A DNA stretch of 47,067 bases from Fidelibacterota bacterium (GCA_012964235.1 DTUJ01000094.1:1-47067); one strand, 5' to 3'; positions 2,444-42,166 are shown, counted from the stretch's first letter. Numbers and translations: made by a program. Notes: generated by a model from the letters alone, not told the origin.

Positions 2444-3037
2444 TTATCCAAATGTAAATCCTTCTGGGATATCTGATTCATTAGTTCCTTCCGGTACCCA
2501 CGATAGATCCAGGATAGTGTAGCTAGGCTTGGTGGTATTAAAAATAGGCACCACTTTCATTCCGATTTCTGGTTCACCCACAGATAAATATCCCATTAGT
2601 ATTGTAGGCACCCCTTCAAATTCCACATTTACAAAGCGAATGGGCTTTGGCAGCGTATTGAATGCACCGGTCCGTTCGGTGATCATGAATGTATGTACAG
2701 TGGCACCCTTTTGAGCTGTTTCAGTCATATCCACAATTGTATTCTTTCCTAAACAGTCCGGGCAGTGTATGCGGAAGGGGATAAAGATGGAACCATTTGC
2801 GTCGCAATTCTGATTATCACATCGGGTGCCCAGCAGTTTTCCCTGACCTAACCCTTCGAAGAAAGGCGCTTCGCCACCATACATGTGTATGTGGGTCAAA
2901 TCCCGGGGATTGGTGATCCCCATTAGTACACCGTCTTCATTGCGGATGGGATCGTTAGGATAGGGAAAATGGAATTGTCCATCCAGGCGATAGCGACCTC
3001 TTTCTACGCGAACTTTCCCACGCTTGGCTGTGCTCAT
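2444..3037 (-). CDS. DUF35-type zinc-ribbon/OB-fold protein (thiolase partner)
   Basis: 197 aa with a Cys4 ribbon, RCDNQNCD...HCPDC, followed by an OB-fold-like C-terminal half. Its start overlaps the stop of the upstream thiolase-like gene (ATGA at 3034-3037), which is the usual DUF35/thiolase pairing. Confidence 0.7.
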   Translation of the reverse strand: MSTAKRGKVRVERGRYRLDGQFHFPYPNDPIRNEDGVLMGITNPRDLTHIHMYGGEAPFFEGLGQGKLLGTRCDNQNCDANGSIFIPFRIHCPDCLGKNTIVDMTETAQKGATVHTFMITERTGAFNTLPKPIRFVNVEFEGVPTILMGYLSVGEPEIGMKVVPIFNTTKPSYTILDLSWVPEGTNESDIPEGFTFG

Positions 3038-4461
3038 GATTCATTCCTTTCTAATTGATGATCCGGATGGACGAGAATTGTTGCGGTAACGTGTGAACCA
3101 ACCCCGGCATGGCTGATGGCTAGTCCCCGTTTAGCGCCTTCTACCTGAAGGTTGGTCCAGTCATCAGGTTTGGTGCGGCCGAAGCGGTCCCATTTGGACT
3201 GGTCTTCGTGCATTTCCGCCCAGCGTCCCCAAATATGCTGGCCCACTTCAACGGTCTGCATAATTCCCGTGGCACCAACAGCGTGCATACAGCCGATGAG
3301 TCCGCCACAAAGATTCGACGGCAGTTTTCCGGGCTCCCCAGTATGGGGATTGGTGTGATAACAGTCGCCAGATTCCACATAGGTCCGCCCTTCACCGTAA
3401 GGCCGGATACCAATATCTTCGTATGTCTGGATATCGCTGATGGTAAAAGCATCGTGCAGTTCCACCAAGTCCAGATCTTCCGTAGGATCCACAACTCCGG
3501 CCATTCGGTAGCCGTAATAAGCAGCCATCCGGGCAGCCAGGAAACTCGTAAAGCCGGGGTAGCGGTCCCCGCCAGGAAAGCGCTCGCCCAGGTCTTTATA
3601 CTGGTCTGGTGATTCATTAGGTAATAACGGAATATCCATGTCCCGGCGATCGGCCACACGCAGGGTATGGCTACCGGCGGATACATAAATTATGAGCGGA
3701 TTGTCCGTCAGTTCATAGGCAGTTTTTTCATCACATAGAATTGCACAAGACGCTCCCACACTCATGAGGCAGCAGTCCAGTGCCCGAAGGGGATAAGCCA
3801 CCACCGGGGAATTCAGTACATCTTCAACGGTAATGTCCATGGGCCCCTGAGCGTGTGGATTCATCCGGGCATAACCGCGGTTTTTTACAGCAATCTCTGC
3901 CATGGTATGGCGGAAAGATTCCTCTTCTTTTCCAAAGACTTGCCAGTATTTCTGGGCCATGACGGCATAGTAGCCGGTATAAATGTGCCCCAATGGTGTT
4001 TCCCAGTCCTTATCTGCTGCAGAAGCAATATAATTATTTCCTTCATCTGTGGGCACCTCGTCCATACGTTCCCAGCCCATTGCCAGAACACAATCGGAAT
4101 ATCCGGAAGCAACGGCTTTAAAAGCTTCCCAAAGAGTAGATCCACCAGTGGCGCCGCCGGTTTTAATCCCAACATTACCTAATGGATCAAGTCCAAGTCT
4201 ATCATGGATAACCGCTTCGCCTAGAAGTTGATCTCCAAAATGATCCGCAAAGTGTCCATAATAGCAGGAATGAATATATTCCTTGAGTTCAGCTGGTGTT
4301 TTGTTAATGAATTCTGCTGCTTCCACAAAGGAATCTATAACCAGTTCTTCCGTCCGTTTTTCCGGTATAGAACGGTCAAATTTGGACATGCCACCGGTAA
4401 CAAGAAATACCGGCCTCTGCATCTGGGGTATCTTGAGTTGTTTATCACTGAATTTGATCAT
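3034..4461 (-). CDS. Thiolase-superfamily (SCP-x-type) protein lacking the nucleophilic cysteine
   Basis: 475 aa. It has SCPx-thiolase-like blocks GIKTGGATGGSTLWEAF...CVLAMGWERM, VELHDAFT and GGLIGCMHAVGATG. In the N-N-N-C-A-T-G-S block, the position of the acyl-accepting Cys is Gly (KTGGATGGS). Confidence 0.75.
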   Translation of the reverse strand: MIKFSDKQLKIPQMQRPVFLVTGGMSKFDRSIPEKRTEELVIDSFVEAAEFINKTPAELKEYIHSCYYGHFADHFGDQLLGEAVIHDRLGLDPLGNVGIKTGGATGGSTLWEAFKAVASGYSDCVLAMGWERMDEVPTDEGNNYIASAADKDWETPLGHIYTGYYAVMAQKYWQVFGKEEESFRHTMAEIAVKNRGYARMNPHAQGPMDITVEDVLNSPVVAYPLRALDCCLMSVGASCAILCDEKTAYELTDNPLIIYVSAGSHTLRVADRRDMDIPLLPNESPDQYKDLGERFPGGDRYPGFTSFLAARMAAYYGYRMAGVVDPTEDLDLVELHDAFTISDIQTYEDIGIRPYGEGRTYVESGDCYHTNPHTGEPGKLPSNLCGGLIGCMHAVGATGIMQTVEVGQHIWGRWAEMHEDQSKWDRFGRTKPDDWTNLQVEGAKRGLAISHAGVGSHVTATILVHPDHQLERNES

Positions 4462-4756
4462 AATACACTTCTTTTATTATAGAGTTAAGGATACCAATTT
4501 CGTTAATTTTCCACATATACTGTTTAAATAACATGAATGTGAGATTTACCAGTATAATAACCATGGTGATTCTACCCCCCGGAGTGGGAATGATATCACC
4601 CAACCAAGTAATGTTAGCCGAAAAATATTTCTGCTGAGACGCATAAAGTCCAATATCCCGCTGGGCAAGAGTGCCCAGAACAACCAGAACCATAAGTCAA
4701 TTTAACGTGTAGAAAAAAATCTTGGGATTGCCTATTATTTTAATGATCTGTTTCAT
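4445..4756 (-). pseudogene. Decayed small membrane-protein gene (ResB-like N-terminal fragment?) with an in-frame TGA
   Basis: The ATG at 4756 overlaps the stop of the upstream lipoprotein gene (ATGA). The frame reads MKQIIKIIGNPKIFFYTLN-TGA(4697-4699)-LMVLVVLGTLAQRDIGLYASQQKYF... and continues in the same frame as the tracked 82-aa ORF. It has only two TM segments and ends inside the start of the thiolase-like gene. The GT-x-AQ...YF pattern recalls ResB/CcsB N-termini; that call is from memory and weak. Confidence 0.3.
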
Positions 4757-8834: not shown

Positions 8835-9839
8835 TTAAAATGATGATTGAAGGCAGGAAAAAAGCTTATTTTTCGGTAGATGATTTTCTAAAATAGTATT
8901 ACAAAAATTCATCATTTCTGTCTCAATTTCTTCTGAATAGGAAGTTAAACCATTTCGATTTTCAAGGGGGCCTGCAAACAAACGTTCATCCGGGTAAAGC
9001 CGTTCAATAGTATGAAACATTTTTTCCGGGAAACGCATTGGGCCAGTGCTCACAGAATGAATACTTTCAGCCGAAATCGTATAAAAAATTTCCTGAATCA
9101 ATTTCCTGTAATTTTTTTTATAGGATTCATGGTAAATCAACGGATCCAGACGTATCCCAACTCGCCAGCCTTTTTCAGCCAAGCTCTTCATTGTCTGTAT
9201 CCGTTTTTTTACAGGTGGGACACCATGTTCCAATTTTTGAGAAATATTTTCAGGAGTAAAACTATAGGCAACAACACAGTTGGGAATGACTTCATGATTC
9301 AATAATTCATCAACATTGATGCTTTTTGTGCGAAGTTCAAGAACTGCTTTTTTATGTTTTTGAAAGAAGGGAAGAAATTCCCGTACAAACCGGGTGACTG
9401 ATTCCAGAGCAAGGGAATCACAATCATAACCGGAGAAAAAAGTGATTTCTTTCTCATCAGGATTTTGTTCTACAATATTATTTATTTCATTCTGGAAATC
9501 TTCATAATTCACAAATAATACATAATTTGCTGAACGGTACATTCCCTGAAGGAAACAATATCTGCAGTCATAAATACAGTTGAGCATGTGGGAAAAATAA
9601 TAATTTTTCCTTCCACCAATTCCAAATCCTTTCGGAGCATCCAATATAAAATTCCCGTGTTTCCTGGCAAGAATAAGCGCCGGTTTCTTTTTCTGTAAAC
9701 GGAAATTCTGTTTTTTAGGATTGAATACTTCCCCATAGCGTTCACATTCCACAATCCTTGCTTTTGAAAAACGGCTGAGGATACTTTCAGTCCTGGGATG
9801 GCTTCGAATTTCCGATTCTATATAAATTGTTTCAATCAT
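8835..9839 (-). CDS. Spore-photoproduct-lyase (SPL) family radical SAM protein
   Basis: 334 aa with the CxxxCxxC cluster motif in NCIYDCRYCFLQGMY. It is collinear with B. subtilis SplB blocks as I recall them: the N-terminal IYIE, a basic K..L.L.RK segment, C-x3-C-x2-C-[YF]-LQ, and LRTKS. Its start lies 8 nt inside the upstream gene. Confidence 0.8.
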   Translation of the reverse strand: MIETIYIESEIRSHPRTESILSRFSKARIVECERYGEVFNPKKQNFRLQKKKPALILARKHGNFILDAPKGFGIGGRKNYYFSHMLNCIYDCRYCFLQGMYRSANYVLFVNYEDFQNEINNIVEQNPDEKEITFFSGYDCDSLALESVTRFVREFLPFFQKHKKAVLELRTKSINVDELLNHEVIPNCVVAYSFTPENISQKLEHGVPPVKKRIQTMKSLAEKGWRVGIRLDPLIYHESYKKNYRKLIQEIFYTISAESIHSVSTGPMRFPEKMFHTIERLYPDERLFAGPLENRNGLTSYSEEIETEMMNFCNTILENHLPKNKLFSCLQSSF

Positions 9840-31517: not shown

Positions 31518-33584
31518 CTAATTAAGCAACAATCCTTTTATTGCCTTAACAATCTTTTTCGCATTGGGTAAATACCTTTCTTCTAAAATGGAATTTAAGG
31601 GTATCGCCGGAACATTCTCAGCTCCAATGACTGATACCGGTGCATCCAAATAACTGAAGCAATCTTCTTGGATCCTACCTGCCAATGCCTGAGCAAATGA
31701 ATTCTCTTTGGGCTCTTCAGTAACTACCAGACAGCGGCTGTGCTTGTTAACTGAATTAAAAATCAATTCTTCATCTAGAGGGTATATGGTTCGAAGGTCA
31801 ATGATTTCCACCTGTCCAGGGAAATTTTTTGCGGCTGATTTACCCCAGTAAACACCCATGCCATAAGTAATGATTGTAAGAGAATTTCCAGATTCTATCT
31901 GTGATTTTTCTGCCTCCAAAATTATATGTCCCTTCCCTAAGGGTAAAATATAATCCCGATCTGGTTCTGGACAAATTGCTGATTCTGTTCCTTTGATCTT
32001 GCTCCAATAGAGACCCTTATGCTCTAGCATTACAACTGGATTGGGATCATGATATGCAGCCTTCAAGAGTCCTTTCATATCAGCACTGTTAGATGGATAC
32101 ACAATTTTGATTCCTTTAATGTTAGCCAAAACAGACTCCACGGAAGACGAATGATAAGGACCTCCACTCCCATAGGCACCAATGGGCACCCGAATGATAC
32201 AGCTGACGGGCCACTTTCCTCTAGAAAGATAGCAGGAACGACTCACTTCTGTAAATAATTGATTCAATCCCGGCCAAATATAATCTGCAAACTGCACCTC
32301 TACGATTGGCTTGCAGCCTACTGCTGACATGCCTACGGTACTGCCAATAATGAATGCCTCCTGAATGGGAGTGTTAAACACACGATCATCGCCAAACGTA
32401 TCTGCCAAAGTCGCCGCTTCTCGGAAAACCCCCCCTAATCGCTTCCCAACATCCTGACCATACAGCAAACATTCGGGATACTCTTCCATGAGTTCTTTGA
32501 TGCCCAACAAGGCACAGTCCACCATCATGGTAGCCTTGGCACCTTCAGGATTACGGTTCCCAGTTTCCTCGGTTATTTCCGTAGATTGAAAAATATTTTC
32601 AAATAGCTCTTCAGGGTCAGGATCATCGGCATCCCCCGCTCTCAAAAAATCTGCCTCAACCTTTTTGATCGCTTCTTTCTCAATTTTATCAATCTCTTCT
32701 GACTTAATCCCAATTTCCTTTAACTGACTCTTGAGAATTGGCAATGGATCATCCTTGGCGTGCTCCGCTAAATCATCACGATACCATTCCATGCGCACTC
32801 CGGATGTATGATGATTCAATAAAGGGACATTCGCGTGAGCAAAGAACGGGCGGCGCTCTCTGCGCATTATTTCGATGGTTTTTTGAATAGTGTGATAGGA
32901 TTGTAAAAAGTCATTTCCTGCAAGCTCTAAAACTTCAATCCCATCATAGCCTTTTACATAGTCCACAATATTGTTGGAGCGTATCTCACTATTACTTGCA
33001 GAAATATCCCACCCATTATCCTGAATTAAATAGAGAATTGGGAATTGTTTCAGTGCTGCCATATGAAAAGCTTCCGACACTTCGCCCTCCGTAATGGATC
33101 CGTCACCCATGGAACAAACGACAATGGGATAATCATCTTTTTCAGATAGCTTTTGTTTTTCCAAATATTGAATCCCCATTGCTACCCCAGTCGTGGGGAT
33201 GGCCTGCATACCAGTTGCCGAAGATTGGTGCGGAATTTTAGGCATATCATCCCGCCGTAAACTTGGATGGGAATAATAAGACCGACCCCCTGAAAAAGGG
33301 TCATCTTTCTTTGCCAATAATTGTAGCATGAGTTCAAATGGCGTCATACCAATACTGAGGAGCAGGGCATCATCGCGGTAGTAGGGTGCTACCCAGTCCT
33401 GAGCTTTAAGCTGCATCCCCACGGCAATCTGAATGGCCTCATGTCCCCGTGAAGTGGCATGCACATACTTGGAAGCCACATCCTTATTCTCTTCGTAAAT
33501 ATCCGTCATAGCCTTTGCAGTACACATGAGGTCATACGCTCTATGAAGTATTTTTGGAGAAACAGAAATATTCTTTGGAGCCAT
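31518..33584 (-). CDS. Fused alpha/beta E1 component of a 2-oxoacid (branched-chain-type) dehydrogenase
   Basis: 688 aa. The N-terminal half has TPP-binding E1-alpha blocks (GDGSITEGEVSEAFHMAA, IQDNGWDIS). The C-terminal half has E1-beta/transketolase-like blocks (DVGKRLGGVFREA, NTPIQEAFIIG, VEVQFADYIWP). No E2 or E3 gene is adjacent. Confidence 0.8.
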   Translation of the reverse strand: MAPKNISVSPKILHRAYDLMCTAKAMTDIYEENKDVASKYVHATSRGHEAIQIAVGMQLKAQDWVAPYYRDDALLLSIGMTPFELMLQLLAKKDDPFSGGRSYYSHPSLRRDDMPKIPHQSSATGMQAIPTTGVAMGIQYLEKQKLSEKDDYPIVVCSMGDGSITEGEVSEAFHMAALKQFPILYLIQDNGWDISASNSEIRSNNIVDYVKGYDGIEVLELAGNDFLQSYHTIQKTIEIMRRERRPFFAHANVPLLNHHTSGVRMEWYRDDLAEHAKDDPLPILKSQLKEIGIKSEEIDKIEKEAIKKVEADFLRAGDADDPDPEELFENIFQSTEITEETGNRNPEGAKATMMVDCALLGIKELMEEYPECLLYGQDVGKRLGGVFREAATLADTFGDDRVFNTPIQEAFIIGSTVGMSAVGCKPIVEVQFADYIWPGLNQLFTEVSRSCYLSRGKWPVSCIIRVPIGAYGSGGPYHSSSVESVLANIKGIKIVYPSNSADMKGLLKAAYHDPNPVVMLEHKGLYWSKIKGTESAICPEPDRDYILPLGKGHIILEAEKSQIESGNSLTIITYGMGVYWGKSAAKNFPGQVEIIDLRTIYPLDEELIFNSVNKHSRCLVVTEEPKENSFAQALAGRIQEDCFSYLDAPVSVIGAENVPAIPLNSILEERYLPNAKKIVKAIKGLLLN

Positions 33585-34340
33585 TTACCCTTTTTTAAGT
33601 TTTTCCAGTGTTTCCCTTGCAAATTTTGACAACACCCGTGTTCCGCTCATTGCAGCTCGTTCTAATAATAAATTGTCCCAATGATTGGTGCCTTCCCACA
33701 TAACCTCTTTAAGTCCTCTCATAGAATCGGGATTAGATGCTGCCAACTTTTCAGCCAACGTTTGAATAGCTGTATCCATTTCTTCAGCGGAGTCATAGAC
33801 CTCTGCGAATAATCCTTTCTCTCTTGCCCAGTCCGCAGAATGCCACTGAGTTGCATTGATGGTGAGCTGACTGAAAGCAGATGGTCCAATTTTTCGTTCA
33901 ATGGGCGGACCCACCACAAATGGACCTATACCAATAGCCAGTTCGCTAAGTTTCACCGATGCAAATTTGGTTGCAAAACAGTAATCTGTAGCAGATGCCA
34001 TGCCCACTCCGCCGCCTACTGTTTTCCCCTGAACTCTGCCAATAATGAACTTGGGGCATTTTCGGGCAGCGTTTATGACATTGGCAAATCCGGAGAAAAA
34101 CTGTTTTCCCTGTGCTTCATTTTCTATTGCCATCAGTTCATCAAAGGATGCTCCCGCACAAAAGACTCTATCACCTCCGGATTTTAAAATCACCACTAAA
34201 ATTTTATCATTGTTTCCTGCTTCAGTTATGGTATCCGCTAATTTTTGCAGAATATCTCCGGGAAGTGAATTGCTCTGAGGGTGGAAAAACTCGATAGTTC
34301 CAATTCTATTTTCAATATCTAATTTCACATAGGGATTCAT
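33585..34340 (-). CDS. Enoyl-CoA hydratase/isomerase (crotonase) family protein
   Basis: 251 aa with the crotonase blocks VFCAGASFDEL and GKTVGGGVGMASATDY. It abuts the paaZ stop and the E1 start, so it is a possible PaaF-type hydratase by context. Confidence 0.75.
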   Translation of the reverse strand: MNPYVKLDIENRIGTIEFFHPQSNSLPGDILQKLADTITEAGNNDKILVVILKSGGDRVFCAGASFDELMAIENEAQGKQFFSGFANVINAARKCPKFIIGRVQGKTVGGGVGMASATDYCFATKFASVKLSELAIGIGPFVVGPPIERKIGPSAFSQLTINATQWHSADWAREKGLFAEVYDSAEEMDTAIQTLAEKLAASNPDSMRGLKEVMWEGTNHWDNLLLERAAMSGTRVLSKFARETLEKLKKG

Positions 34341-34343
34341 AAT

Positions 34344-36389
34344 TTAATCCTGATTTTTCTTTTTGATCATCGTTAATATGGTTGCCAGCATGACGGTCTC
34401 GCCCTCATCATCATAGACATCCACCAAAAATTTAACAATTCCCTTGGCAATGTCATCCTCTGATCGTTTTTCCTGCTCTATTTTTTCTTTGGCTGTAAAA
34501 CGAACTGCAATGGTCATACCCGGATAGACCGGTTTGGTGAAACGGCATTCATCAATTCCATAGTTTAACAATACGGGTCCCTTGGGAGGATCTACAAACA
34601 AACCTGCTGCTTTGGACAGGATATAATATCCGTGGGCAACTCGTTCGGTAAAGATGGTACCGTCCAGGGCATTTTCATCCATGTGAGCATAAAATTTATC
34701 ACCGCTAAGTTCTGCAAAATCTTCGATGTTTTCAATGGTTACCAGATGCGTATCTGTTGTCACCGTTTCACCAATTTCAATTTCTTCAAAATGCTTGCGG
34801 AAAACATGGGGACTTGATTCTGTCTGCTTTCCCCCATATTGGTATTGACTTGTCAATGCCGTAATGGTAGTGGGATGCCCCTGAATTGCAGTGCGCTGGA
34901 GATAGTGCATAATGCCTCTTTTCCCTCCCATTTCCTCTCCGCCTCCAGCTCTTCCGGGACCTCCATGGGTGAGCAACGGCATGGGTGAACCATGACCGGT
35001 ACTTTCTTTGGCACAGTCGCTGTTCAGCACCAGAATTCGGCCGTGCATAGAAGCAGCGCCCATGACAAAATCCTTGGCTATATTGTTATCCGCAGTAATA
35101 ATGGAACAAACCAAAGAACCTTTTCCCATTCGGGATAATTCTATGGCCTCATCCAAATTTTTATAGGGGAGAATGGTTGAAACGGGACCAAAAGCTTCTA
35201 TATTATGGCAGTCCCGTCTTTCAAATGGACTGTCATTTAAAAACAGGATAGGCGAGATGAAGGCACCCTTATTTTTATCGGCACCGGTAACTTCAAATTC
35301 ATTTACATCTCCGAAAACAATTTCTTGAGATTTAGCCAGTAAATTTACTTTTTCAGAAACTTCCTCTACCTGCGGTCGTCCAGCTAAAGAGCCCATGCGA
35401 ACTCCTTCAACAGAGGGATCCCCAATGACCGTTTTCGAAAGGCGATGGCTCAAAGCTGACTGAACATCATCCACCAATTTTTCAGGCACAATTATTCTAC
35501 GAATTGCAGTACATTTTTGACCGGCTTTAACGGTTATTTCTCTCTGTACCTCTTTGATGTATAGATCAAACTCCGCTGTTCCCGGTGTTGCATCCTCACC
35601 CAAAATGGAAGCATTTAATGAGTCCGCTTCCATATTAAAGGGTACCGCTTCTTCAATAATTTTGGGATTAGATTTTAGCATTTGTCCTGTGGAAGCACTG
35701 CCGGTAAAGGTTACCACATCTTCACACATGATATGATCTAAAATTCCATTGGCGGAACCGCAAATTAGCTGGAGCGCACCTTCCGGTAGAATGTCTGTTG
35801 CAATAATTTCCCGTACCATGAGTTCTGTTAAATAGCAGGTGAGGGTTGCCGGCTTCACAATGGCGGGCATGCCAGCCATGAGGTTTACCGCAATCTTTTC
35901 CAGCATACCCCAAATGGGAAAATTAAAAGCATTGATATGAATTACTACACCCTCTTTCGGCACCATAATATGATGACCTATAAACGAACCTCCTTTGGAG
36001 AGTTTTGCAGCCTCGCCATCCACATAATAGGGTAAATCCGGGAATTGTTTTCGCAGGGATGCGTTGGCAAATAGGTTGCCTATTCCGCCTTCGATGTCAA
36101 TCCATGAGTCCATTTTGGTAGCGCCGGTTGCAGCACTCAATTCATAAAACTTATCCTTAATGCCATGTAAATGAAGCGCCAGCGCTTTTAGCATTAAACC
36201 TCTCTGTTGAAATGTCATTTTTCTTAAGAAGGGACTGCCAACCTTACGGGCATAATCCATCATTTGGAAAAAGTCTAATCCCTTACTGCTTGCCCTCCCT
36301 ATTTCTGTTCCGGTAATGGCATTAAAAAGAGGGGTGCCGTCCCCATCTCCGTTCACCCATTTCCCCCTTGCGTAATTTTGATAATTCAT
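34344..36389 (-). CDS. paaZ: Bifunctional oxepin-CoA hydrolase / 3-oxo-5,6-dehydrosuberyl-CoA semialdehyde dehydrogenase
   Basis: About 681 aa. It has an N-terminal ALDH domain (FTGSASTGQ, NMEADSLN, AGQKCTAIRR) and a C-terminal MaoC hot-dog domain (AELSGDKFYAHMDE, VAHGYY). I prefer the start MNYQNYARGKW at 36389 (TAATG overlap with paaY); the tracked ORF extends to 36410. Confidence 0.85.
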   Translation of the reverse strand: MNYQNYARGKWVNGDGDGTPLFNAITGTEIGRASSKGLDFFQMMDYARKVGSPFLRKMTFQQRGLMLKALALHLHGIKDKFYELSAATGATKMDSWIDIEGGIGNLFANASLRKQFPDLPYYVDGEAAKLSKGGSFIGHHIMVPKEGVVIHINAFNFPIWGMLEKIAVNLMAGMPAIVKPATLTCYLTELMVREIIATDILPEGALQLICGSANGILDHIMCEDVVTFTGSASTGQMLKSNPKIIEEAVPFNMEADSLNASILGEDATPGTAEFDLYIKEVQREITVKAGQKCTAIRRIIVPEKLVDDVQSALSHRLSKTVIGDPSVEGVRMGSLAGRPQVEEVSEKVNLLAKSQEIVFGDVNEFEVTGADKNKGAFISPILFLNDSPFERRDCHNIEAFGPVSTILPYKNLDEAIELSRMGKGSLVCSIITADNNIAKDFVMGAASMHGRILVLNSDCAKESTGHGSPMPLLTHGGPGRAGGGEEMGGKRGIMHYLQRTAIQGHPTTITALTSQYQYGGKQTESSPHVFRKHFEEIEIGETVTTDTHLVTIENIEDFAELSGDKFYAHMDENALDGTIFTERVAHGYYILSKAAGLFVDPPKGPVLLNYGIDECRFTKPVYPGMTIAVRFTAKEKIEQEKRSEDDIAKGIVKFLVDVYDDEGETVMLATILTMIKKKNQD

Positions 36390-36982
36390 TATTTCTTGGT
36401 CTCTTTCCATGGTTTAAAATGAGTTGTTTGAGATGGGCGATCCTTTTGGATTTCCCGTAAGGGTTCGCATTCTCGCAAGGAATTATAACAATCCTCCGGG
36501 AGTTGTTGATAAATTTTGGTTCCGGTAGATTTCCAGTCAAGCATTTCATCGGAAATGTCTCCCTTAATTATGGCAGGATTACCCACCACCAATTTCCGGT
36601 TTGGAATTTGCATTTCTCCTTTGATGAAACAGAGGGCGCCCACAATACATTCATCACCCACTTCCGCATCATCCATGACAACAGAGTTCATCCCAATAAG
36701 CGTATTTCTCCCAATATTTCCCCCGTGAATGACTGCTCCATGTCCAATATGAGCACCTTCTTTCAGCAACACAGACTTTCCCGGAAAGACATGAATTGTA
36801 CAATTTTCCTGCACATTGCAACCATCCTCAATAATGATTTCACCCCAGTCTCCCCGAACGGCAGCCCCGGGACCAATATATACTTTTTTACCAACAATGA
36901 CATTCCCCGTCACTGTCGCTTGAGGGTGGATAAAAGCAGATTCCATAATTACCGGCTTATAGCCATTAAATTCGTAAATCAT
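36389..36982 (-). CDS. paaY: PaaY-type hexapeptide-repeat (gamma-carbonic-anhydrase-like) protein
   Basis: 197 aa. It has a left-handed beta-helix repeat pattern (IHPQATVTGNVIVG, IGPGAAVRGD, IGHGAVIHG) and a C-terminal helix. It lies within the paa cluster. Confidence 0.8.
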   Translation of the reverse strand: MIYEFNGYKPVIMESAFIHPQATVTGNVIVGKKVYIGPGAAVRGDWGEIIIEDGCNVQENCTIHVFPGKSVLLKEGAHIGHGAVIHGGNIGRNTLIGMNSVVMDDAEVGDECIVGALCFIKGEMQIPNRKLVVGNPAIIKGDISDEMLDWKSTGTKIYQQLPEDCYNSLRECEPLREIQKDRPSQTTHFKPWKETKK

Positions 36983-37597
36983 TTAACATTTCTCATATTT
37001 CCAGGATTTCTTTTTACCGTCACTGAGCCATTCAATACTGGTATTTAACCGCTTGAACCGAGTGGCTTCCTGCTTAGCAGTTGCTACCCATTGAAGGTAT
37101 TCCTTTTTGTAGGATGGTGCCAGACTATTAAAAAAATCCCGTGCTTTTGGATTATCGTTTAGCGCATTTTGAAAATCTTCAGGAAAATCTGCTGCAATTT
37201 TTTTGGGTGTTGGCTTTTTGCCCTGCCTGTTGAGTTCCATCGCTTCTAATAAATAATATTTTAACTGCTCTTTGTCCACTTCCGAAAGGGCAGTATATTT
37301 TATCATGCGGTTAATTTGATCCTCATATTGTTTTTCAAAAAGATTATACTTATCTGTGACAAGAGAACCTTTGAAAAAATTGAGCCCTACATGATTTTTA
37401 AAGGATGCCAGCCAGCAGACCATTCCCTTAGAATTAAAATTTGGTGCGCCCCATTTCCAGTCTTCTTCTAATCCAATTTCTGATGAGGTGAGGATTTCTC
37501 GTAAGTGAATGAGGATTTCATGAAATTCGCCACCTACATTATTGATGTAGTCAGTAATTTTCTGTGAAGCCCCAGGATTTATATTGGACTTCCCCAT
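36983..37597 (-). CDS. DUF1801 (YdhG-like) + YdeI/OmpD-associated domain protein
   Basis: 204 aa. The N-terminal WKWGAPNF...HVGLNFFKG block resembles DUF1801. The C-terminal FFNSLAPSYKKEYLQWVATAKQEATRFKR resembles the YdeI family. Its stop abuts the paaY start. Confidence 0.6.
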   Translation of the reverse strand: MGKSNINPGASQKITDYINNVGGEFHEILIHLREILTSSEIGLEEDWKWGAPNFNSKGMVCWLASFKNHVGLNFFKGSLVTDKYNLFEKQYEDQINRMIKYTALSEVDKEQLKYYLLEAMELNRQGKKPTPKKIAADFPEDFQNALNDNPKARDFFNSLAPSYKKEYLQWVATAKQEATRFKRLNTSIEWLSDGKKKSWKYEKC

Positions 37598-37600
37598 TAC

Positions 37601-38809
37601 CTATACTTTTTCAATGATCGTGGCATAGCCTTGTCCAACACCTACACACATGGCAACCATGGCATATTTTTTCTGCTTTCTCTGGAGTTCCAAGGCAGCG
37701 GTTTGCAGAATCCGTGTTCCTGTCATGCCTAGGGGATGACCCAAAGCTAACGCACCTCCATTGGGATTTATACGGGGATCATCATCTGCCAATCCCCATT
37801 CTCTGATACACGCCAAGGACTGTGCCGAAAATGCTTCATTCAGTTCAATGACATCCATATCATCCATTTTCAAGCCGGATTTTTCAAGGGCTTTATTCGC
37901 AGCCTGCACCGGACCAATACCCATAATTCGGGGTTCAACTCCCACTACAACAGATGAAAGAATTCGTGCCAACGGATTTAGTCCATGAGTCTTAACACCC
38001 TCTTCTGAAGCAATGAGCATGGCAGCGGCTCCGTCATTAAGCCCGGAAGAATTTCCGGCGGTGACGGTACCATCCTTTTTAAAGGCTGGCTTAAGTTTCG
38101 CCAATCCTTCAATGGAGGTATGAGGTTTTACAAATTCGTCATCCTTAAAAATGATGGGATCGGCTTTTCGTTGGGGTATTTCGACCGAGATAATTTCATT
38201 TTCGAAAATTTCCTCTTTTTGAGCTAATGCTGCTTTCATCTGGGAATGATATGCGAAAGCATCCTGATCATTCCGATTAATGTCATATTTCTCAGCCAGA
38301 TTTTCTGCTGTTTGTCCCATTCCCTCAGTGCCATAGATTTCCTGCATTTTGGGATTGATGAAGCGCCAGCCAAAACTGGAGTCCTCCATTTGTGAATCCC
38401 TGCCGAATGGTTTGGACGCTTTGGAAATCACCCAGGGACCACGGGTCATGTTTTCCACGCCACCTGCAATAAATAAATCACCATCTCCCGATTGAATAGC
38501 ACGATGGGCATGGATGATAGCGGACATTCCTGAAGCACAGAGACGATTCACTGTTTCACCGGGGACAGAAAATGGAAGCCCTGCCAATAATAATGCCATT
38601 CGGGCCACATTGCGGTTATCTTCTCCAGCCTGATTGGCGCAGCCCATTATGACATCATCAATTTCTACCGGATCAAAATCGTGGCGGTCCATTAAAGAAC
38701 GAATGGCGTGGGCAGCTAAATCATCGGTTCGGACTTGTGATAAGGTTCCTCCAAATTTACCTATAGGAGTCCGTACTGCATCAATTATATAGGAGTCTTT
38801 ATTTCTCAT
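37601..38809 (-). CDS. paaJ: 3-oxoadipyl-CoA / 3-oxo-5,6-dehydrosuberyl-CoA thiolase
   Basis: 402 aa. It is a canonical degradative thiolase: VNRLCASGMSAI (nucleophilic Cys), NEAFSAQ, GGALALGHPLGMTG and the C-terminal MCVGVGQG. Confidence 0.85.
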   Translation of the reverse strand: MRNKDSYIIDAVRTPIGKFGGTLSQVRTDDLAAHAIRSLMDRHDFDPVEIDDVIMGCANQAGEDNRNVARMALLLAGLPFSVPGETVNRLCASGMSAIIHAHRAIQSGDGDLFIAGGVENMTRGPWVISKASKPFGRDSQMEDSSFGWRFINPKMQEIYGTEGMGQTAENLAEKYDINRNDQDAFAYHSQMKAALAQKEEIFENEIISVEIPQRKADPIIFKDDEFVKPHTSIEGLAKLKPAFKKDGTVTAGNSSGLNDGAAAMLIASEEGVKTHGLNPLARILSSVVVGVEPRIMGIGPVQAANKALEKSGLKMDDMDVIELNEAFSAQSLACIREWGLADDDPRINPNGGALALGHPLGMTGTRILQTAALELQRKQKKYAMVAMCVGVGQGYATIIEKV

Positions 38810-38904
38810 TCATCCTCCGAAAACCAATCTTTGGTAGTACGATATACGGTGCCCTTAAAATAAGCAATTTCCTGATTATCCTGATTAGTATCGGACTGAT
38901 TCAT
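38806..38904 (-). CDS. Possible 32-aa leader/micro-ORF translationally coupled to paaJ
   Basis: The reading is ATG(38904)...MNQSDTNQDNQEIAYFKGTVYRTTKDWFSEDE-TGA. The stop overlaps the paaJ ATG (ATGA at 38806-38809). A purine-rich GAGGG lies about 11 nt upstream. I have no homology evidence. Confidence 0.2.
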   Translation of the reverse strand: MNQSDTNQDNQEIAYFKGTVYRTTKDWFSEDE

Positions 38905-38911
38905 AAAAGGA

Positions 38912-39002
38912 AACCCTCAATAAAAGGGTTCCTGCCCGTCCGGCAGGCGGAAAAACCCCTAACTTGTTGTCTTTTAAATAATCCCCGCTCTAAAGGACGG
39001 GG
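38912..39002 (-). promoter_or_regulatory. Cluster of three stem-loops in the paaH-paaJ spacer (attenuator/terminator/processing candidate)
   Basis: The stems are AACCCT (38912-17)/AGGGTT (38925-30), CCTGCC (38931-36)/GGCAGG (38942-47) and CCCCG (38983-87)/CGGGG (38998-39002). This 216-nt gap is the only long gap inside the otherwise tightly packed paa operon. Confidence 0.3.
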
Positions 39003-39025
39003 CAAATGAAATTTTTTGAGTGTAA

Positions 39026-40189
39026 TCATGAATAAAATGTAGAATTTTCACTTGCCTTTTTTATGAGCAATGGGCTGGCAATATAGCGGTCATCTCCATA
39101 TTGAGAATGGAGTTCTTTTAATTGAGAAAGGGGTATATTTAATCCGATATCATCTGCCCATTTCAGCAGTCCTTTGGGATAGTTCACACCTGTAGTCATG
39201 GCAATGTCAATATCCTCCCGGGTAGCAATGGATCCGTTCAAAGCATCAGCCGCAGCATTAATAAGCATGACTAAAATCCGGTTGAATATTTCCCTACCTA
39301 ATTCCTCATTCTTTTTAGGTTCAGGATTAACAGCGCTTTCTGAATAATCAAAATAACCTTTACCGGATTTTCTACCCAGCAATCCTTCGTCCATCATTTT
39401 CCTTTGTGTAGGAGAGGGCTTATAGCGGGGATCATGGTTGGTTCCATCATACACGGCTTTGGTGGCAGAATAATTAATATCGTTTCCAATATAATCCATG
39501 AGTTCAAATGGACCCATACGAAATCCGCCAAACTCCTTCATTGCCCAATCAATAGTGGCAAAATCGGCAATGCCATCTTCGAAAATTTTCAGTGCTTCTC
39601 CGTAGAATGGCCGCGCTACCCGATTCACAATAAAACCGGGTGTGTCTTTGGCGGTAACCACCGTTTTTCCCCAACCCTCCAAAATGGATTTTACCTCTTT
39701 TACTAATCTTTCATCTGTTTTTTCGGTGGGAATTACTTCCACCAATTTCATCAAAGGTACCGGATTAAAAAAATGAATGCCCACAATCCTGGTTTGATTG
39801 TTACAGGCAGATGCGATGCCTGCCACTGAAAGTGATGAAGTATTGGTAGCTAAAATACAGTCCTCTGATACCAATGATTCCATTTGAGAAAATAATTTCT
39901 GCTTGATTTCTAGATTTTCAACAATAGCTTCAATTACCAGATCACTATCAGCAATCTCTTCCGTTTCTGAAGTCCAGTTGATATTTGCTAAAATATGTTG
40001 GGTTTTGTCCTCATTCATTTTTCCTTTTTCAACCAAACGATTGAGAATTGACTTTAGTTTGGATTGGGAACTTTCTAATGCCTGTGGAAAGGAATCAACA
40101 ATAGTAACCTGACAACTATTTGATGCTGCCACTTGTGCAATTCCAGATCCCATAGTGCCGGCACCTATTACAGAAATTTTATTGCTCAT
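39026..40189 (-). CDS. paaH: 3-hydroxyacyl-CoA (3-hydroxyadipyl-CoA) dehydrogenase
   Basis: 387 aa. It has the Rossmann block KISVIGAGTMGSGIAQV, NTSSLSV, GIHFFNPVP and PGFIVNR, plus an extra C-terminal helical domain. It overlaps paaG by 4 nt. Confidence 0.8.
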   Translation of the reverse strand: MSNKISVIGAGTMGSGIAQVAASNSCQVTIVDSFPQALESSQSKLKSILNRLVEKGKMNEDKTQHILANINWTSETEEIADSDLVIEAIVENLEIKQKLFSQMESLVSEDCILATNTSSLSVAGIASACNNQTRIVGIHFFNPVPLMKLVEVIPTEKTDERLVKEVKSILEGWGKTVVTAKDTPGFIVNRVARPFYGEALKIFEDGIADFATIDWAMKEFGGFRMGPFELMDYIGNDINYSATKAVYDGTNHDPRYKPSPTQRKMMDEGLLGRKSGKGYFDYSESAVNPEPKKNEELGREIFNRILVMLINAAADALNGSIATREDIDIAMTTGVNYPKGLLKWADDIGLNIPLSQLKELHSQYGDDRYIASPLLIKKASENSTFYS

Positions 40190-40956
40190 TTGCCGGTAAA
40201 TACCGGGGGTCGTTTTTCTAAAAATGCCTGGACACCTTCTTTATGGTCTTCCGATTTGGCTGAGAGCGCCTGTGTTTCAGCTTCTAAATCCAATTGTTCA
40301 TCCAGAGAATTATTGAGAGAATGGGTGAGCAATCTTTTGGTATATCCCAATCCTTTTGTAGGCATTTCAGAAATAGATTTTGCCAACTGCAATGATTTGG
40401 ATTCAAACTCAGCATCCTCATACACGGCATAGATCATTCCCATTTTTTCCGCTTTTTCAGCAGATATCGATTCGCCCGTCATCATGAGGGCGGTTGCCTT
40501 TGGGAGCCCAATTAAACGGGGTAAAAAGTAGGTACCGCCGCTATCTGGAATTAACCCAATCTTACTAAAGGCCTGAATAAAGTTTGCTGATTTGCCTGCC
40601 ACCACAATATCACACGCCAATGCTACATTGGCACCTGCCCCGGCAGCTATGCCATTTACTGCAGCTATCACCGGTTTCTCAATTTCACGAATTTTCCTGA
40701 TAATGGGATTATAATGCTCCCGAACAATTTGCTCAATTTCCGGTCCTTCAGGATCGGTGGCTTCTTTTAAATCCTGTCCGGCGCAGAATGCTTTCCCCGA
40801 ACCGGTAATGAGAATACAGCGAATGCTATCATCATTGGCGCAATCATTTAAAATATTTTGCAGAGCCAATGCCATCTCCCGGACAAAAGAATTATATTTC
40901 TCCGGGCGGTTTAGGGTTGTTTTCCCAATTGCATCTATTTTTTCAAATAGGATCAT
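40186..40956 (-). CDS. paaG: 2-(1,2-epoxy-1,2-dihydrophenyl)acetyl-CoA isomerase (crotonase family)
   Basis: 256 aa. It aligns end to end by eye with E. coli PaaG: LNRPEKYNSF, IRCILITGSGKAFCAGQDL, AAVNGIAAGAGANVALACDIVVA, AFSKIGLIPDSGGT, and the C-terminal EGVQAFLEKRPPVFTGK. Confidence 0.85.
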   Translation of the reverse strand: MILFEKIDAIGKTTLNRPEKYNSFVREMALALQNILNDCANDDSIRCILITGSGKAFCAGQDLKEATDPEGPEIEQIVREHYNPIIRKIREIEKPVIAAVNGIAAGAGANVALACDIVVAGKSANFIQAFSKIGLIPDSGGTYFLPRLIGLPKATALMMTGESISAEKAEKMGMIYAVYEDAEFESKSLQLAKSISEMPTKGLGYTKRLLTHSLNNSLDEQLDLEAETQALSAKSEDHKEGVQAFLEKRPPVFTGK

Positions 40957-40961
40957 GGCAT

Positions 40962-41417
40962 TTAAATCTGCTTAAAATGGTGAAATGGTTCTAAACAATC
41001 TAAACATTTATACAAAGCCTTACAGGCGGTGGAACCAAATTCGCTAATGACTTCGACCTGTTGAGATTCACACTGGGGACAGGCCACTTCCAAAGAAGGT
41101 GGTGCAATTCCGGATTTTTTCAGCTTTGTTTTTACGGCATCGTTCATCCAGTCCGTGGTCCAAGGCGGAGCCAGGGAAATGTCAATTTGGTAATTAGTGA
41201 TACCATCTGTTTCCAAATGACGGACGATTTCCTCTTTCATAAAAGAAAATGCGGGGCAGCCGCTGTAGGTTGGTGTGATGGTAATTTTGAGTTGATTATT
41301 ATTAAATTCTACATTCCGTACGATTCCTAAATCTACTATAGATACAGCAGGAATTTCAGGGTCGGGAATAGTCTTTAATAATTCCCAAATTACCGTAGTG
41401 GAAATTTCCTTTACCAT
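40962..41417 (-). CDS. paaD: Phenylacetyl-CoA epoxidase subunit D (DUF59/SufT-like + Cys-rich C-terminus)
   Basis: 151 aa. It has the blocks DPEIPAVSIVDLGIV, TPTYSGCPA and the C-terminal CPQC...CKALYKCLDC. It overlaps paaC by 7 nt. Confidence 0.8.
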   Translation of the reverse strand: MVKEISTTVIWELLKTIPDPEIPAVSIVDLGIVRNVEFNNNQLKITITPTYSGCPAFSFMKEEIVRHLETDGITNYQIDISLAPPWTTDWMNDAVKTKLKKSGIAPPSLEVACPQCESQQVEVISEFGSTACKALYKCLDCLEPFHHFKQI

Positions 41418-42166
41418 TTGGCATCAGGATAGGCACGTTGAAGATACTGCATATCCGATAATAAATGTCCCAAATGTTCAGTATGAATTCCCTCCCTGCC
41501 GCCAGTAGTCATGTGGATATTCTCAGGTCTCTTCAAGGTGGCCTCTGCAAGGACTTCATCAATTATTTTAATCCATTCCTGTTTTAGTGATGAACAATCA
41601 ACACCTATTTTCTGCTGAAGCATTTCATTATCAATCTCATTCATCTCAAATAATTCATTGGTGAACATCCATAAATTATCAATAGCTGACTGGACCTTCG
41701 TATGGCTTTCCGCTGTGCCAACACCCAATCGGATGACCCACTTCGATGAATGGCGAAAATGATAGGCAGTTTCCTTAATGGATTTTTGGGCAATGGCTGA
41801 TAGTTGTTCATCCTTACTTCCAGTTAATTTCTGTAAAAATAATTTATAAAATGCATCCAGAAAAAACTGGCGCACCATAGTATCTGCAAAATTCCCATTG
41901 GGCCGTTCAAAGAGAATACGATTGGTGAATTGCCTTTCATTTCGTTTAAAAGCAAGATCGTCTGCTGTGATACCATTTCCTTTTAGAGTGGCAGCATATT
42001 CCAATAATAAATTGGCTCTGCCAAACATATCTAGCGAGATGTTGCTGAGTGCAATATCTTCTTCCAGAAAAGGAGCTCTGTATGCCCACTGGGACAGCCG
42101 CTGGCCTAAAATGAGGGCATCATCTCCAAGAGCCAGTACATATTTATAGAGCGAATCTTTAGCCAT
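41411..42166 (-). CDS. paaC: Phenylacetyl-CoA epoxidase structural subunit C
   Basis: 251 aa. It has a ferritin-like helical pattern and the N-terminus LALGDDALILGQRLSQW...PFLEEDIALSNISLD, typical of PaaC. It lies between paaB and paaD. Confidence 0.8.
   Translation of the reverse strand: MAKDSLYKYVLALGDDALILGQRLSQWAYRAPFLEEDIALSNISLDMFGRANLLLEYAATLKGNGITADDLAFKRNERQFTNRILFERPNGNFADTMVRQFFLDAFYKLFLQKLTGSKDEQLSAIAQKSIKETAYHFRHSSKWVIRLGVGTAESHTKVQSAIDNLWMFTNELFEMNEIDNEMLQQKIGVDCSSLKQEWIKIIDEVLAEATLKRPENIHMTTGGREGIHTEHLGHLLSDMQYLQRAYPDAKW

Follow-up and report, generated by a model that had tools for sequence, protein, structure and literature searches.

Aldolases built from a thiolase-fold subunit and a DUF35 protein are an already known kind of enzyme. 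The steroid side-chain aldolase Ltp2-ChsH2 of Thermomonospora curvata (6ok1) has glycine in place of the nucleophilic cysteine of thiolases and an obligate DUF35 partner, and acts after an acyl-CoA dehydrogenase (ACAD) and a hydratase, with no dehydrogenase step, on a tertiary 3-hydroxyacyl-CoA to give a ketone and a short acyl-CoA. The bile-acid aldolase Sal-Shy of Comamonas testosteroni (9myr) likewise has glycine at the nucleophile position and a DUF35 partner (Shy), and performs retro-aldol cleavage of a 3-hydroxyacyl-CoA. Catalysis depends on the tyrosine of the YDHF motif and Tyr344 in Ltp2, and on Tyr302 and Cys304 of YDCY in Sal (PMC12329534). The logic of Ltp2 and Sal, with another set of catalytic residues, is proposed here for a gene pair in a 47,067-nucleotide stretch of DNA from a Fidelibacterota bacterium (GCA_012964235.1, DTUJ01000094.1:1-47067; the whole stretch is called the window), whose source is a Marinimicrobia metagenome-assembled genome (MAG) of 1.9 Mb and 90% completeness. 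The pair encodes P0001, a thiolase-fold protein without the catalytic cysteines, and P0002, a DUF35-type protein. With confidence and doubt in balance, the two are proposed to form a heteromeric enzyme, P0001 as the catalytic subunit and P0002 as the zinc-ribbon/OB subunit, that is no longer a thiolase and would act as a retro-aldol lyase for tertiary 3-hydroxy-3-methylacyl-CoA in the catabolism of leucine (β-methyl-branched acyl-CoA).

P0001 matches the thiolase families of Pfam (Thiolase_C_1, 1.1e-18; Thiolase_N, 1.7e-6), and its AlphaFold2 (AF2) model (predicted local distance difference test, pLDDT, 95.6) has the thiolase alpha-beta-alpha-beta-alpha fold. The best structural match is 6esq_A, with Z 53.4 and a root-mean-square deviation (rmsd) of 1.4 Å over 387 residues. 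In gap-free phmmer alignments, the nucleophilic cysteines of three solved thiolases (zebrafish SCP2-thiolase, 6hsj; P. furiosus, 7yvy; M. thermolithotrophicus, 6esq) align with Gly103, which is the second glycine in KTGGATGG. The same column of a 101-sequence alignment holds cysteine in 51 canonical relatives and glycine in 21 of 21 family members, which bears out the Cys-to-Gly replacement put forward by a sequence-only reading of this DNA. A cysteine in a shifted register was ruled out as the nucleophile, as the three alignments agree and no conserved cysteine lies in or beside the motif. The acid/base cysteine of HDCF, the corresponding motif of SCP2 and archaeal thiolases, is Ala338 in every family member, and His336 is kept. 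By these alignments, both thiolase cysteines are gone from P0001 (G103, A338). The histidines that form the thioester oxyanion hole of SCP2-type thiolases, H336 and H393, are conserved, the latter being nearly invariant in the alignment.

The canonical motifs CASG, HDCF, GHPVGAT and HNxGG read GGATGG, HDAF, (M)HAVGAT and SHAG in all 21 family members. The co-changed motifs are VExxCASG to IKTGGATG, GxEKM to GWERM, SDGAAA to SVGAS and HNxGG to SHAG, and the co-changed residues near the active site are E100K, V130W, K132R, D235V, N450S and G452A. Ltp2-type tyrosines were sought at the position of Tyr294, the one of Tyr294 and Tyr344 that the comparison covers, with a negative outcome: P0001 has HDAF where Ltp2 has YDHF and Sal has YDCY, and a histidine sits at the Tyr294 position. 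The mechanism is therefore not transferable from Ltp2 or Sal, and P0001 appears to belong to neither family and would have to rely on other residues.

P0002 is a DUF35 protein with a rubredoxin-like Cys4 ribbon followed by an OB fold. Pfam scores it at 20.8 and 19.2 bits where 27.1 and 23.2 are required (OB_ChsH2_C PF01796, zf-ChsH2 PF12172). The assignment, made earlier from the sequence, is confirmed by a phmmer match to the DUF35 structure 3irb (2.8e-6), by a Foldseek search with the P0002 model in which the first seven hits and the majority of the top 16 are chains of DUF35 proteins, and by the four ribbon cysteines, which are invariant in 22 orthologues. Genomic context was compared over 87 loci, and at least 71 of them have the DUF35 gene directly downstream of the thiolase-like one. 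In the window, the two open reading frames (ORFs) are as first described, all the motifs then quoted for P0001 are present, and the P0001 stop does overlap the DUF35 gene start, with ATGA common to both. The overlap reads ...TCATGAGC..., a purine-rich run, AAAGGAA, lies immediately upstream of it, and translational coupling of the two genes through it is predicted.

The pair is probably a C-C lyase that shortcuts leucine breakdown, possibly with release of acetone, because both cysteines are lost and because it sits where sister genomes keep methylcrotonyl-CoA carboxylase (MCC) and 3-hydroxy-3-methylglutaryl-CoA (HMG-CoA) lyase (HMGL). Among 301 sampled genomes of the Marinimicrobia phylum, each at least 80% complete, the pair (called at 80% identity or more) occurs in 65 and HMG-CoA lyase (called by NF004283) in 57, and a single genome, G148, has both. 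The lyase of G148 is of a lower-scoring type, on a separate contig at an unrelated locus, and without MccB. Neither module is present in 180 genomes. The pair and the lyase are found in one and five of the six genomes of genus g28, in five and one of the six of g13, and in 17 and two of the 24 of g77; the five genomes of g7 comprise two with the pair only, two with the lyase only and one with both. Carboxyltransferase matches form two classes, a PccB-like one at ~660 bits and one at 515-540 bits, which is taken to be MccB because it always adjoins the lyase. No MccB-type carboxyltransferase occurs in the 65 pair-bearing genomes, and the pair-bearing families f1, f7, f8, f13, f15 and f16 have no carboxyltransferase match at 1e-80. 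In g77, the pair-type genomes have the PccB type only, whereas the lyase-type genomes have both.

Moreover, the two modules replace each other at the same locus in four genera, as seen in 13 regions whose flanks share 76-92% identity. In g7 and g13, EamA-like/MccB/HMGL/enoyl-CoA hydratase (ECH)/peptidyl-prolyl isomerase (PPIase) corresponds to EamA-like/.../DUF35/thiolase-like/ECH/PPIase, and in g28, PPIase/HMGL/MccB corresponds to PPIase/thiolase-like/DUF35. In g77, gene27/MccB/ECH/MccA/HMGL/gene28 corresponds to gene27/thiolase-like/DUF35/gene28, and this is the only one of the four genera in which LiuC and MccA are also in the replaced block with MccB and HMG-CoA lyase. Outside the phylum, 11 pair-bearing genomes were checked, namely one gammaproteobacterium, one Desulfatiglandales, one Asgard, one archaeon labelled Methanobacteriota and seven Thermoplasmatota; HMG-CoA lyase was found in none of them and an MccB orthologue in only two.

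The recurrent neighbours of the pair are an ECH, in 23 Marinimicrobia loci (best NCBIfam models of YngF or LiuC/AtuE type), and an ACAD, in Thermoplasmatota, deltaproteobacterial, gammaproteobacterial and Asgard loci. A comparison with NCBIfam did not yield a model by which these ACADs could be told apart as isovaleryl-CoA dehydrogenase. Thermoplasmatota loci contain an ACAD, CoA-transferase A/B and the pair, and one gammaproteobacterium has the order AsnC regulator, branched-chain 2-oxoacid dehydrogenase (BCKDH) E1alpha, E1beta, E2, ACAD, pair, leucine-type dehydrogenase. A 3-hydroxyacyl-CoA dehydrogenase is never adjacent to the pair in the loci examined. Hydration of a β-methyl-branched acyl-CoA yields a tertiary alcohol, which cannot be oxidised, and the pair would offer, beyond leucine, another means of dealing with such acyl-CoAs. 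The glycine at the nucleophile position, the DUF35 partner and the ACAD/hydratase context without a dehydrogenase are the features found in thiolase-fold/DUF35 retro-aldolases in the broad sense. Retro-aldol cleavage would fit best because a Cys-less fold with an intact oxyanion hole is joined to this context and to carboxylase loss; together with the replacement of MccB and HMGL, these findings support the earlier suggestion, made without naming a substrate, that the pair cleaves a C-C bond of an acyl-CoA by a non-thiolytic, retro-aldol-type reaction. Three Promethearchaeota loci (L007/L069/L077) combine the pair with an unusual ACAD-like protein of 437-447 residues, a beta-keto acid cleavage enzyme (BKACE), two additional genes each for thiolase and DUF35 proteins, and two hydratases, and look like an extended acyl-CoA cleavage island.

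The pair's own genome has a 2-oxoacid dehydrogenase complex, three ACADs and several ECHs. At its 90% completeness, no HMGL-like protein was found in it and no PccB/MccB-type carboxyltransferase (AccA, AccD and a fused AccA/AccD-like protein only); the biotin carboxylase is AccC-like only, and neither HMG-CoA synthase nor HMG-CoA reductase was found. HMG-CoA therefore has no visible source in this genome, and the mevalonate pathway was rejected as one, as the synthase and reductase were not found. The fused protein, of 599 residues with AccA-like and AccD-like parts (contig C218, L090:385-2184), lies beside separate AccA and AccD genes, and its orthologues, 62-65% identical, occur in some related genomes only, independently of the pair. 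It was rejected as an MCC substitute because it does not follow the pair: the lyase-type genome G214 has it, as do G178 and G183, which are pair-type, and two other lyase-type genomes, G059 and G233, lack it.

From these comparisons of sequence and context, we infer the following reaction, substrate, products and catalytic residues. Leucine would be converted through 2-oxoisocaproate to isovaleryl-CoA by the 2-oxoacid dehydrogenase complex, then to 3-methylcrotonyl-CoA by an ACAD and to 3-hydroxyisovaleryl-CoA by an ECH. In its own genome, the pair likely splits the latter into acetone and acetyl-CoA, bypassing biotin-dependent carboxylation. His336 and His393 would polarise the thioester and stabilise the leaving acetyl-CoA enolate, and a general base, for which His451, Tyr161 or a conserved His/Arg of the DUF35 N-terminal extension are candidates, would deprotonate the 3-hydroxyl. 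No acyl-enzyme intermediate would be formed, because the nucleophile position is occupied by glycine. Such a route would use no biotin, ATP or bicarbonate and would stand in for the module of MCC, methylglutaconyl-CoA hydratase and HMG-CoA lyase. The pair might accept both 3-hydroxyisovaleryl-CoA and HMG-CoA. Leucine-degrading cultured marine Vibrio species make acetone, according to passages in PMC4033308 and PMC13677872 that cite Nemecek-Marshall 1995, 1999. A wider claim, held with doubt somewhat outweighing confidence, is that the pair is the acetone-forming 3-hydroxyisovaleryl-CoA lyase of a biotin-, ATP- and bicarbonate-independent leucine pathway, which would have supplanted the MCC/HMG-CoA-lyase route in uncultured marine bacteria and archaea numbering hundreds of species (Marinimicrobia, Thermoplasmatota, Asgard, Desulfobacterota-like), with a catalysis unlike that of Ltp2 and Sal, and would be a marine source of acetone. 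A full-text literature search found no paper on the P0001 family or on a 3-hydroxyisovaleryl-CoA lyase gene.

Several points weigh against an acetone-forming lyase. Neither a hydratase nor an ACAD adjoins the pair in the window, and for the general base there are only candidates, the tyrosine used by Ltp2 and Sal being absent. No acetone carboxylase (Hydantoinase_B) was found in the pair's own genome, so that acetone would be a dead end there, and the route would give one acetyl-CoA per leucine compared with three. The hydratase next to the pair in g7 and g13 has its orthologue (69-71% identity) in the methylglutaconyl-CoA hydratase of LiuC type that lyase-type genomes carry, and thus an HMG-CoA-type substrate would fit equally well. 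Two pair-bearing archaeal genomes keep a LiuC-MccA-BCCP-MccB cluster (BCCP, biotin carboxyl carrier protein) or an MccB orthologue. One of them, G305 (cluster at L117:4826-9347; same genome as L061), has the cluster and the pair, and no HMG-CoA lyase. Absence calls depend on MAGs that are 80-99% complete, all the support is comparative, and related genomes are non-independent observations. As an observation apart, the MccB of G305 is 66.5% identical to a Marinimicrobia MccB, which is unusually high across domains.

The closest rival keeps the retro-aldol chemistry and regards the pair as a non-homologous HMG-CoA lyase, by which HMG-CoA would be cleaved to acetoacetate and acetyl-CoA; it is rather unlikely. 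In its favour is the near-perfect complementarity with HMG-CoA lyase, which extends to the 11 pair-bearing genomes of other phyla, but the 65 pair-type Marinimicrobia genomes lack the MccB-type carboxyltransferase as well, and g77 swaps the whole MccB-ECH-MccA-HMGL block and not the lyase alone. The LiuC/AtuE-type hydratase kept beside the pair, and the CoA-transferase A/B beside it in Thermoplasmatota, which fits acetoacetate activation, would also suit an HMG-CoA lyase; in the pair's own genome, however, such an enzyme would have no visible supply of its substrate. The archaea G305 and G388 have MCC and the pair without the lyase, which fits this rival, although MCC-derived HMG-CoA can enter the mevalonate pathway in archaea instead.

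Another chemistry within the same branched-chain pathway is likewise unlikely. It might be decarboxylation, a PhlABC/MucABC-like Claisen or acyl transfer of non-covalent type, hydrolysis, or isomerisation of an intermediate derived from 3-methylcrotonyl-CoA. More than one kind of enolate chemistry is supported by the oxyanion hole of the thiolase fold, and the general base of the aldol mechanism has only candidate residues, which lends these alternatives some weight. The Cys-less TbSLP of Trypanosoma brucei has weak malonyl-CoA decarboxylase activity (PMC12329534), whereas genomes without an acyl-CoA carboxylase offer no carboxylated substrate. The C-acyltransferases PhlC and MucABC (Z about 47.5) are among the relatives that depend on DUF35, but acyl transfer of the PhlC type needs the cysteine that P0001 has lost. 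The only recurrent enzyme neighbours, ACAD and ECH, yield a 3-hydroxyacyl-CoA, which speaks for retro-aldol cleavage over these chemistries.

A scaffolding role without catalysis, a regulatory pseudo-enzyme or a task that has nothing to do with leucine is improbable for the protein; the shared liu locus would then be a recombination hotspot and no mark of functional replacement. Such a view could draw on the loss of both cysteines, on the uninformative flanks in the window and on the 180 of 301 genomes with neither module. On the contrary, the protein is extremely conserved, with identities of 79-97% across the span from Asgard archaea to Marinimicrobia, and within a genus the pair is more conserved than its flanks; the histidines of the oxyanion hole do not vary, nor do the motifs specific to the clade; four genera show the replacement, between two different sets of flanks; and the gammaproteobacterial pair is embedded in an operon of BCKDH, ACAD and leucine dehydrogenase (LeuDH). 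A true 3-ketoacyl-CoA thiolase with another nucleophile or a shifted cysteine is very improbable, for although the fold is very well kept and the NCBI model names the family only as a thiolase domain-containing protein, glycine holds the nucleophile position in the three gap-free alignments, the second cysteine is also lost, no 3-hydroxyacyl-CoA dehydrogenase is associated with the pair, and the three canonical Cys-containing thiolases of its own genome already cover ordinary thiolysis.

For the family of P0001, a scan of one genome per prokaryotic species gave 502 encoding stretches. Identity is 86-97% within Marinimicrobia and 79-85% to proteins of Thermoplasmatota, Promethearchaeota (Asgard), Desulfatiglandales/Deltaproteobacteria and Gammaproteobacteria; for P0002 it is 60-86% across phyla. 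The constraint, at ~80% identity between archaea and bacteria, is unusual, and a large, tightly packed multi-subunit machine may underlie it. A FastTree tree of 77 sequences shows phylum-level clades on very short branches, with Marinimicrobia as sister to Thermoplasmatota and a depth between phyla of ~0.3 substitutions per site in total. This pattern points to slow evolution with a few ancient transfers rather than to widespread exchange in recent times. In any one genus, the pair is 96-97% identical compared with 74-94% for the flanking genes. The GC-rich patch at the pair is weak as proof of recent transfer: the GC content at first codon positions (GC1) is high, at 0.61, through amino-acid composition, that at third positions (GC3, 0.44-0.47) is only modestly above most neighbours, and phyla do not interleave in the tree. 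In NCBIfam, P0001 reaches 694.4 bits against NF004982 (PRK06365), 0.6 bit under the cut-off of 695, with residues 1-466 aligned to positions 1-429 of the 430 in the profile; this model is an equivalog named 'thiolase domain-containing protein', without a functional name.

The nearest full-length relatives among representatives at 50% identity are 35-48% identical and still belong to a wider Cys-less GGATGG clade. A second Cys-less thiolase-like type, 40-43% identical to P0001, is found in G079, G095, G143, G179, G159, G198, G254 and G238 (families f5 and f9). At least four of those genomes also have HMG-CoA lyase, so that this second type is not a lyase replacement; its substrate is probably another one.

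P0001 carries two clade-specific insertions. An insertion of about 50 residues had been noted in the sequence-only reading; the first insertion is indeed present, and its size is ~26 residues relative to the closest structure, 6esq_A, and ~45 relative to the shortest relatives. The reading had also described a Trp/His-rich C-terminal extension of about 60 residues. This is instead an internal insertion of ~34 residues before the last beta-hairpin, and the hairpin (residues 445-464) aligns with the thiolase C-terminus, leaving a true C-terminal tail of only ~10 residues. The N-terminal extension of P0002 has the invariant residues F22, H23, N28, T42-N43-P44-R45, H51, Y53 and E56. The coordinates of these elements, and of other features of the window, are collected in the table.

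Features of the window: the gene pair with its motifs and insertions, followed by other genes
Feature	Position	Strand	Description	Basis
P0001 gene	3034..4461	-	475-aa thiolase-fold protein without catalytic cysteines	ORF and translation, Pfam, NCBIfam, AF2
P0002 gene	2444..3037	-	197-aa DUF35-type zinc-ribbon/OB-fold partner	ORF, phmmer, Foldseek
KTGGATGGS block	4138..4164	-	Gly103 (4153-4155) at the position of the thiolase nucleophilic Cys	alignments
HDAF motif	3445..3456	-	H336-F339	
Insertion 1	3547..3660	-	residues 268-305, conserved LLPNE...YPG	alignment
MHAVGATG block	3265..3288	-	His393, the conserved His of the thiolase GHP motif	
Insertion 2	3130..3231	-	residues 411-444, Trp/His-rich, two short helices	alignment, model
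SHAGVGS loop	3094..3114	-	last beta-hairpin; HN(V)GG of canonical relatives; Ser450/His451/Ala452 clade-specific	
P0002 N-terminal extension	2873..3037	-	~55 aa, absent from solved DUF35 proteins; low confidence in the isolated model	
P0002 Cys4 zinc ribbon	2753..2821	-	C73, C78, C92, C95	
Small ORF	4445-4693	-	82 aa, hydrophobic	
Radical-SAM protein	8835-9839	-	spore-photoproduct-lyase family	Pfam SPL 6.9e-22
Phenylacetate (paa) cluster region	31518-42166	-		
Fused 2-oxoacid dehydrogenase	31518-33584	-	688 aa, E1alpha/E1beta	
Divergent crotonase	33585-34340	-		
PaaZ	34344-36410	-		
PaaY	36389-36982	-		
PcaF/PaaJ-type thiolase	37601-38809	-		
PaaH-like 3-hydroxyacyl-CoA dehydrogenase	39026-40189	-		
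PaaG	40186-40956	-		
PaaD	40962-41417	-		
PaaC	41411-42166	-		

In the window, the pair is flanked by a gene of the EamA family and by unrelated genes (Pfam, NCBIfam), and these flanks are uninformative on its function. The EamA exporter and the aldo-keto reductase (AKR) that had been named as neighbours carry no functional information, the former because an EamA-like gene clustering with that of the window flanks both module types in g7 and g13 genomes; the AKR is not recurrent beside the pair across the loci examined. The small ORF shares 17 nt with the beginning of the thiolase-like gene, has no family match, and may be spurious or encode a small membrane protein. Farther away, the window contains a phenylacetate catabolic cluster, adjoined by the fused dehydrogenase and the crotonase. 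The radical-SAM protein scores 94 bits against TIGR04070, which is below the cut-off.

At present, annotation gives the family no name beyond 'thiolase domain-containing protein' or 'acetyl-CoA C-acetyltransferase'. If the proposed lyase is real, the textbook route of leucine catabolism through MCC and HMG-CoA lyase would have a widespread unrecognised alternative, for which a thiolase fold was repurposed. The metabolism of abundant uncultured marine heterotrophs would be reconstructed differently, as these would no longer be apparent leucine non-degraders, and leucine-dependent acetone formation, known from cultured marine Vibrio since the 1990s, would gain a testable gene candidate. The pair would also represent a third, mechanistically distinct class of thiolase-fold/DUF35 aldolases, without the motif tyrosine of Ltp2 and Sal. 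The reverse reaction, a condensation of a ketone with acetyl-CoA, would be of interest for biocatalysis.

Among known systems, the functional counterpart is the combination of MCC and HMG-CoA lyase, which occupies the same genomic slot with a mutually exclusive distribution. HMG-CoA lyase cleaves a tertiary 3-hydroxy-3-methylacyl-CoA into acetoacetate plus acetyl-CoA, analogous to the reaction proposed for the pair. In contrast, it has no sequence or fold relation to the pair, no HMGL-like domain (PF00682/NF004283, TIM barrel) being found in P0001 or P0002 by Pfam and NCBIfam, and its route needs a prior ATP- and biotin-dependent carboxylation.

In structure, the nearest relatives of P0001 are all DUF35-dependent thiolase-fold enzymes, with the aldolases Ltp2 and Sal among them. 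After 6esq_A, the model matches ST0096 (4yzo), the P. furiosus thiolase (7yvy) and the acyltransferases PhlC and MucABC, and further BbsB, SCP2-thiolases, TbSLP (Z 42.9), Ltp2 (Z 42.2) and Sal (Z 41.3). The 6esq protein, the archaeal acetoacetyl-CoA thiolase of a thiolase/HMG-CoA synthase/DUF35 complex, is 30% identical to P0001 over the structurally aligned residues; both belong to the same DUF35-dependent subfamily and conserve the GHP-type and HDxF histidines. Unlike P0001, it has the nucleophilic cysteine and HDCF, performs Claisen condensation, and partners HMG-CoA synthase, an enzyme not found in the pair's own genome. TbSLP (5ab4-7) likewise has a thiolase fold without the nucleophilic cysteine and was recently proposed to be an aldolase (PMC12329534), but it is eukaryotic, its motif is YDCF, and no DUF35 partner has been described for it. 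Ltp2 superposes on P0001 with an rmsd of 2.2 Å over 366 residues at a sequence identity of only ~21%. In contrast to Ltp2, with Tyr294 of YDHF, P0001 has histidine at this position, two clade-specific insertions and no steroid gene context, and whereas the DUF35 unit of the Ltp2 system is a domain of the hydratase, P0002 is a separate protein with an N-terminal extension. In comparison with Sal, the HDAF motif of P0001 has neither the tyrosine nor the cysteine of YDCY. The P0001 clade therefore differs from the thiolase-fold/DUF35 aldolases already known in four respects: the motifs (HDAF, SHAG), the presence of two insertions, the extension of the DUF35 partner and the proposed pathway.

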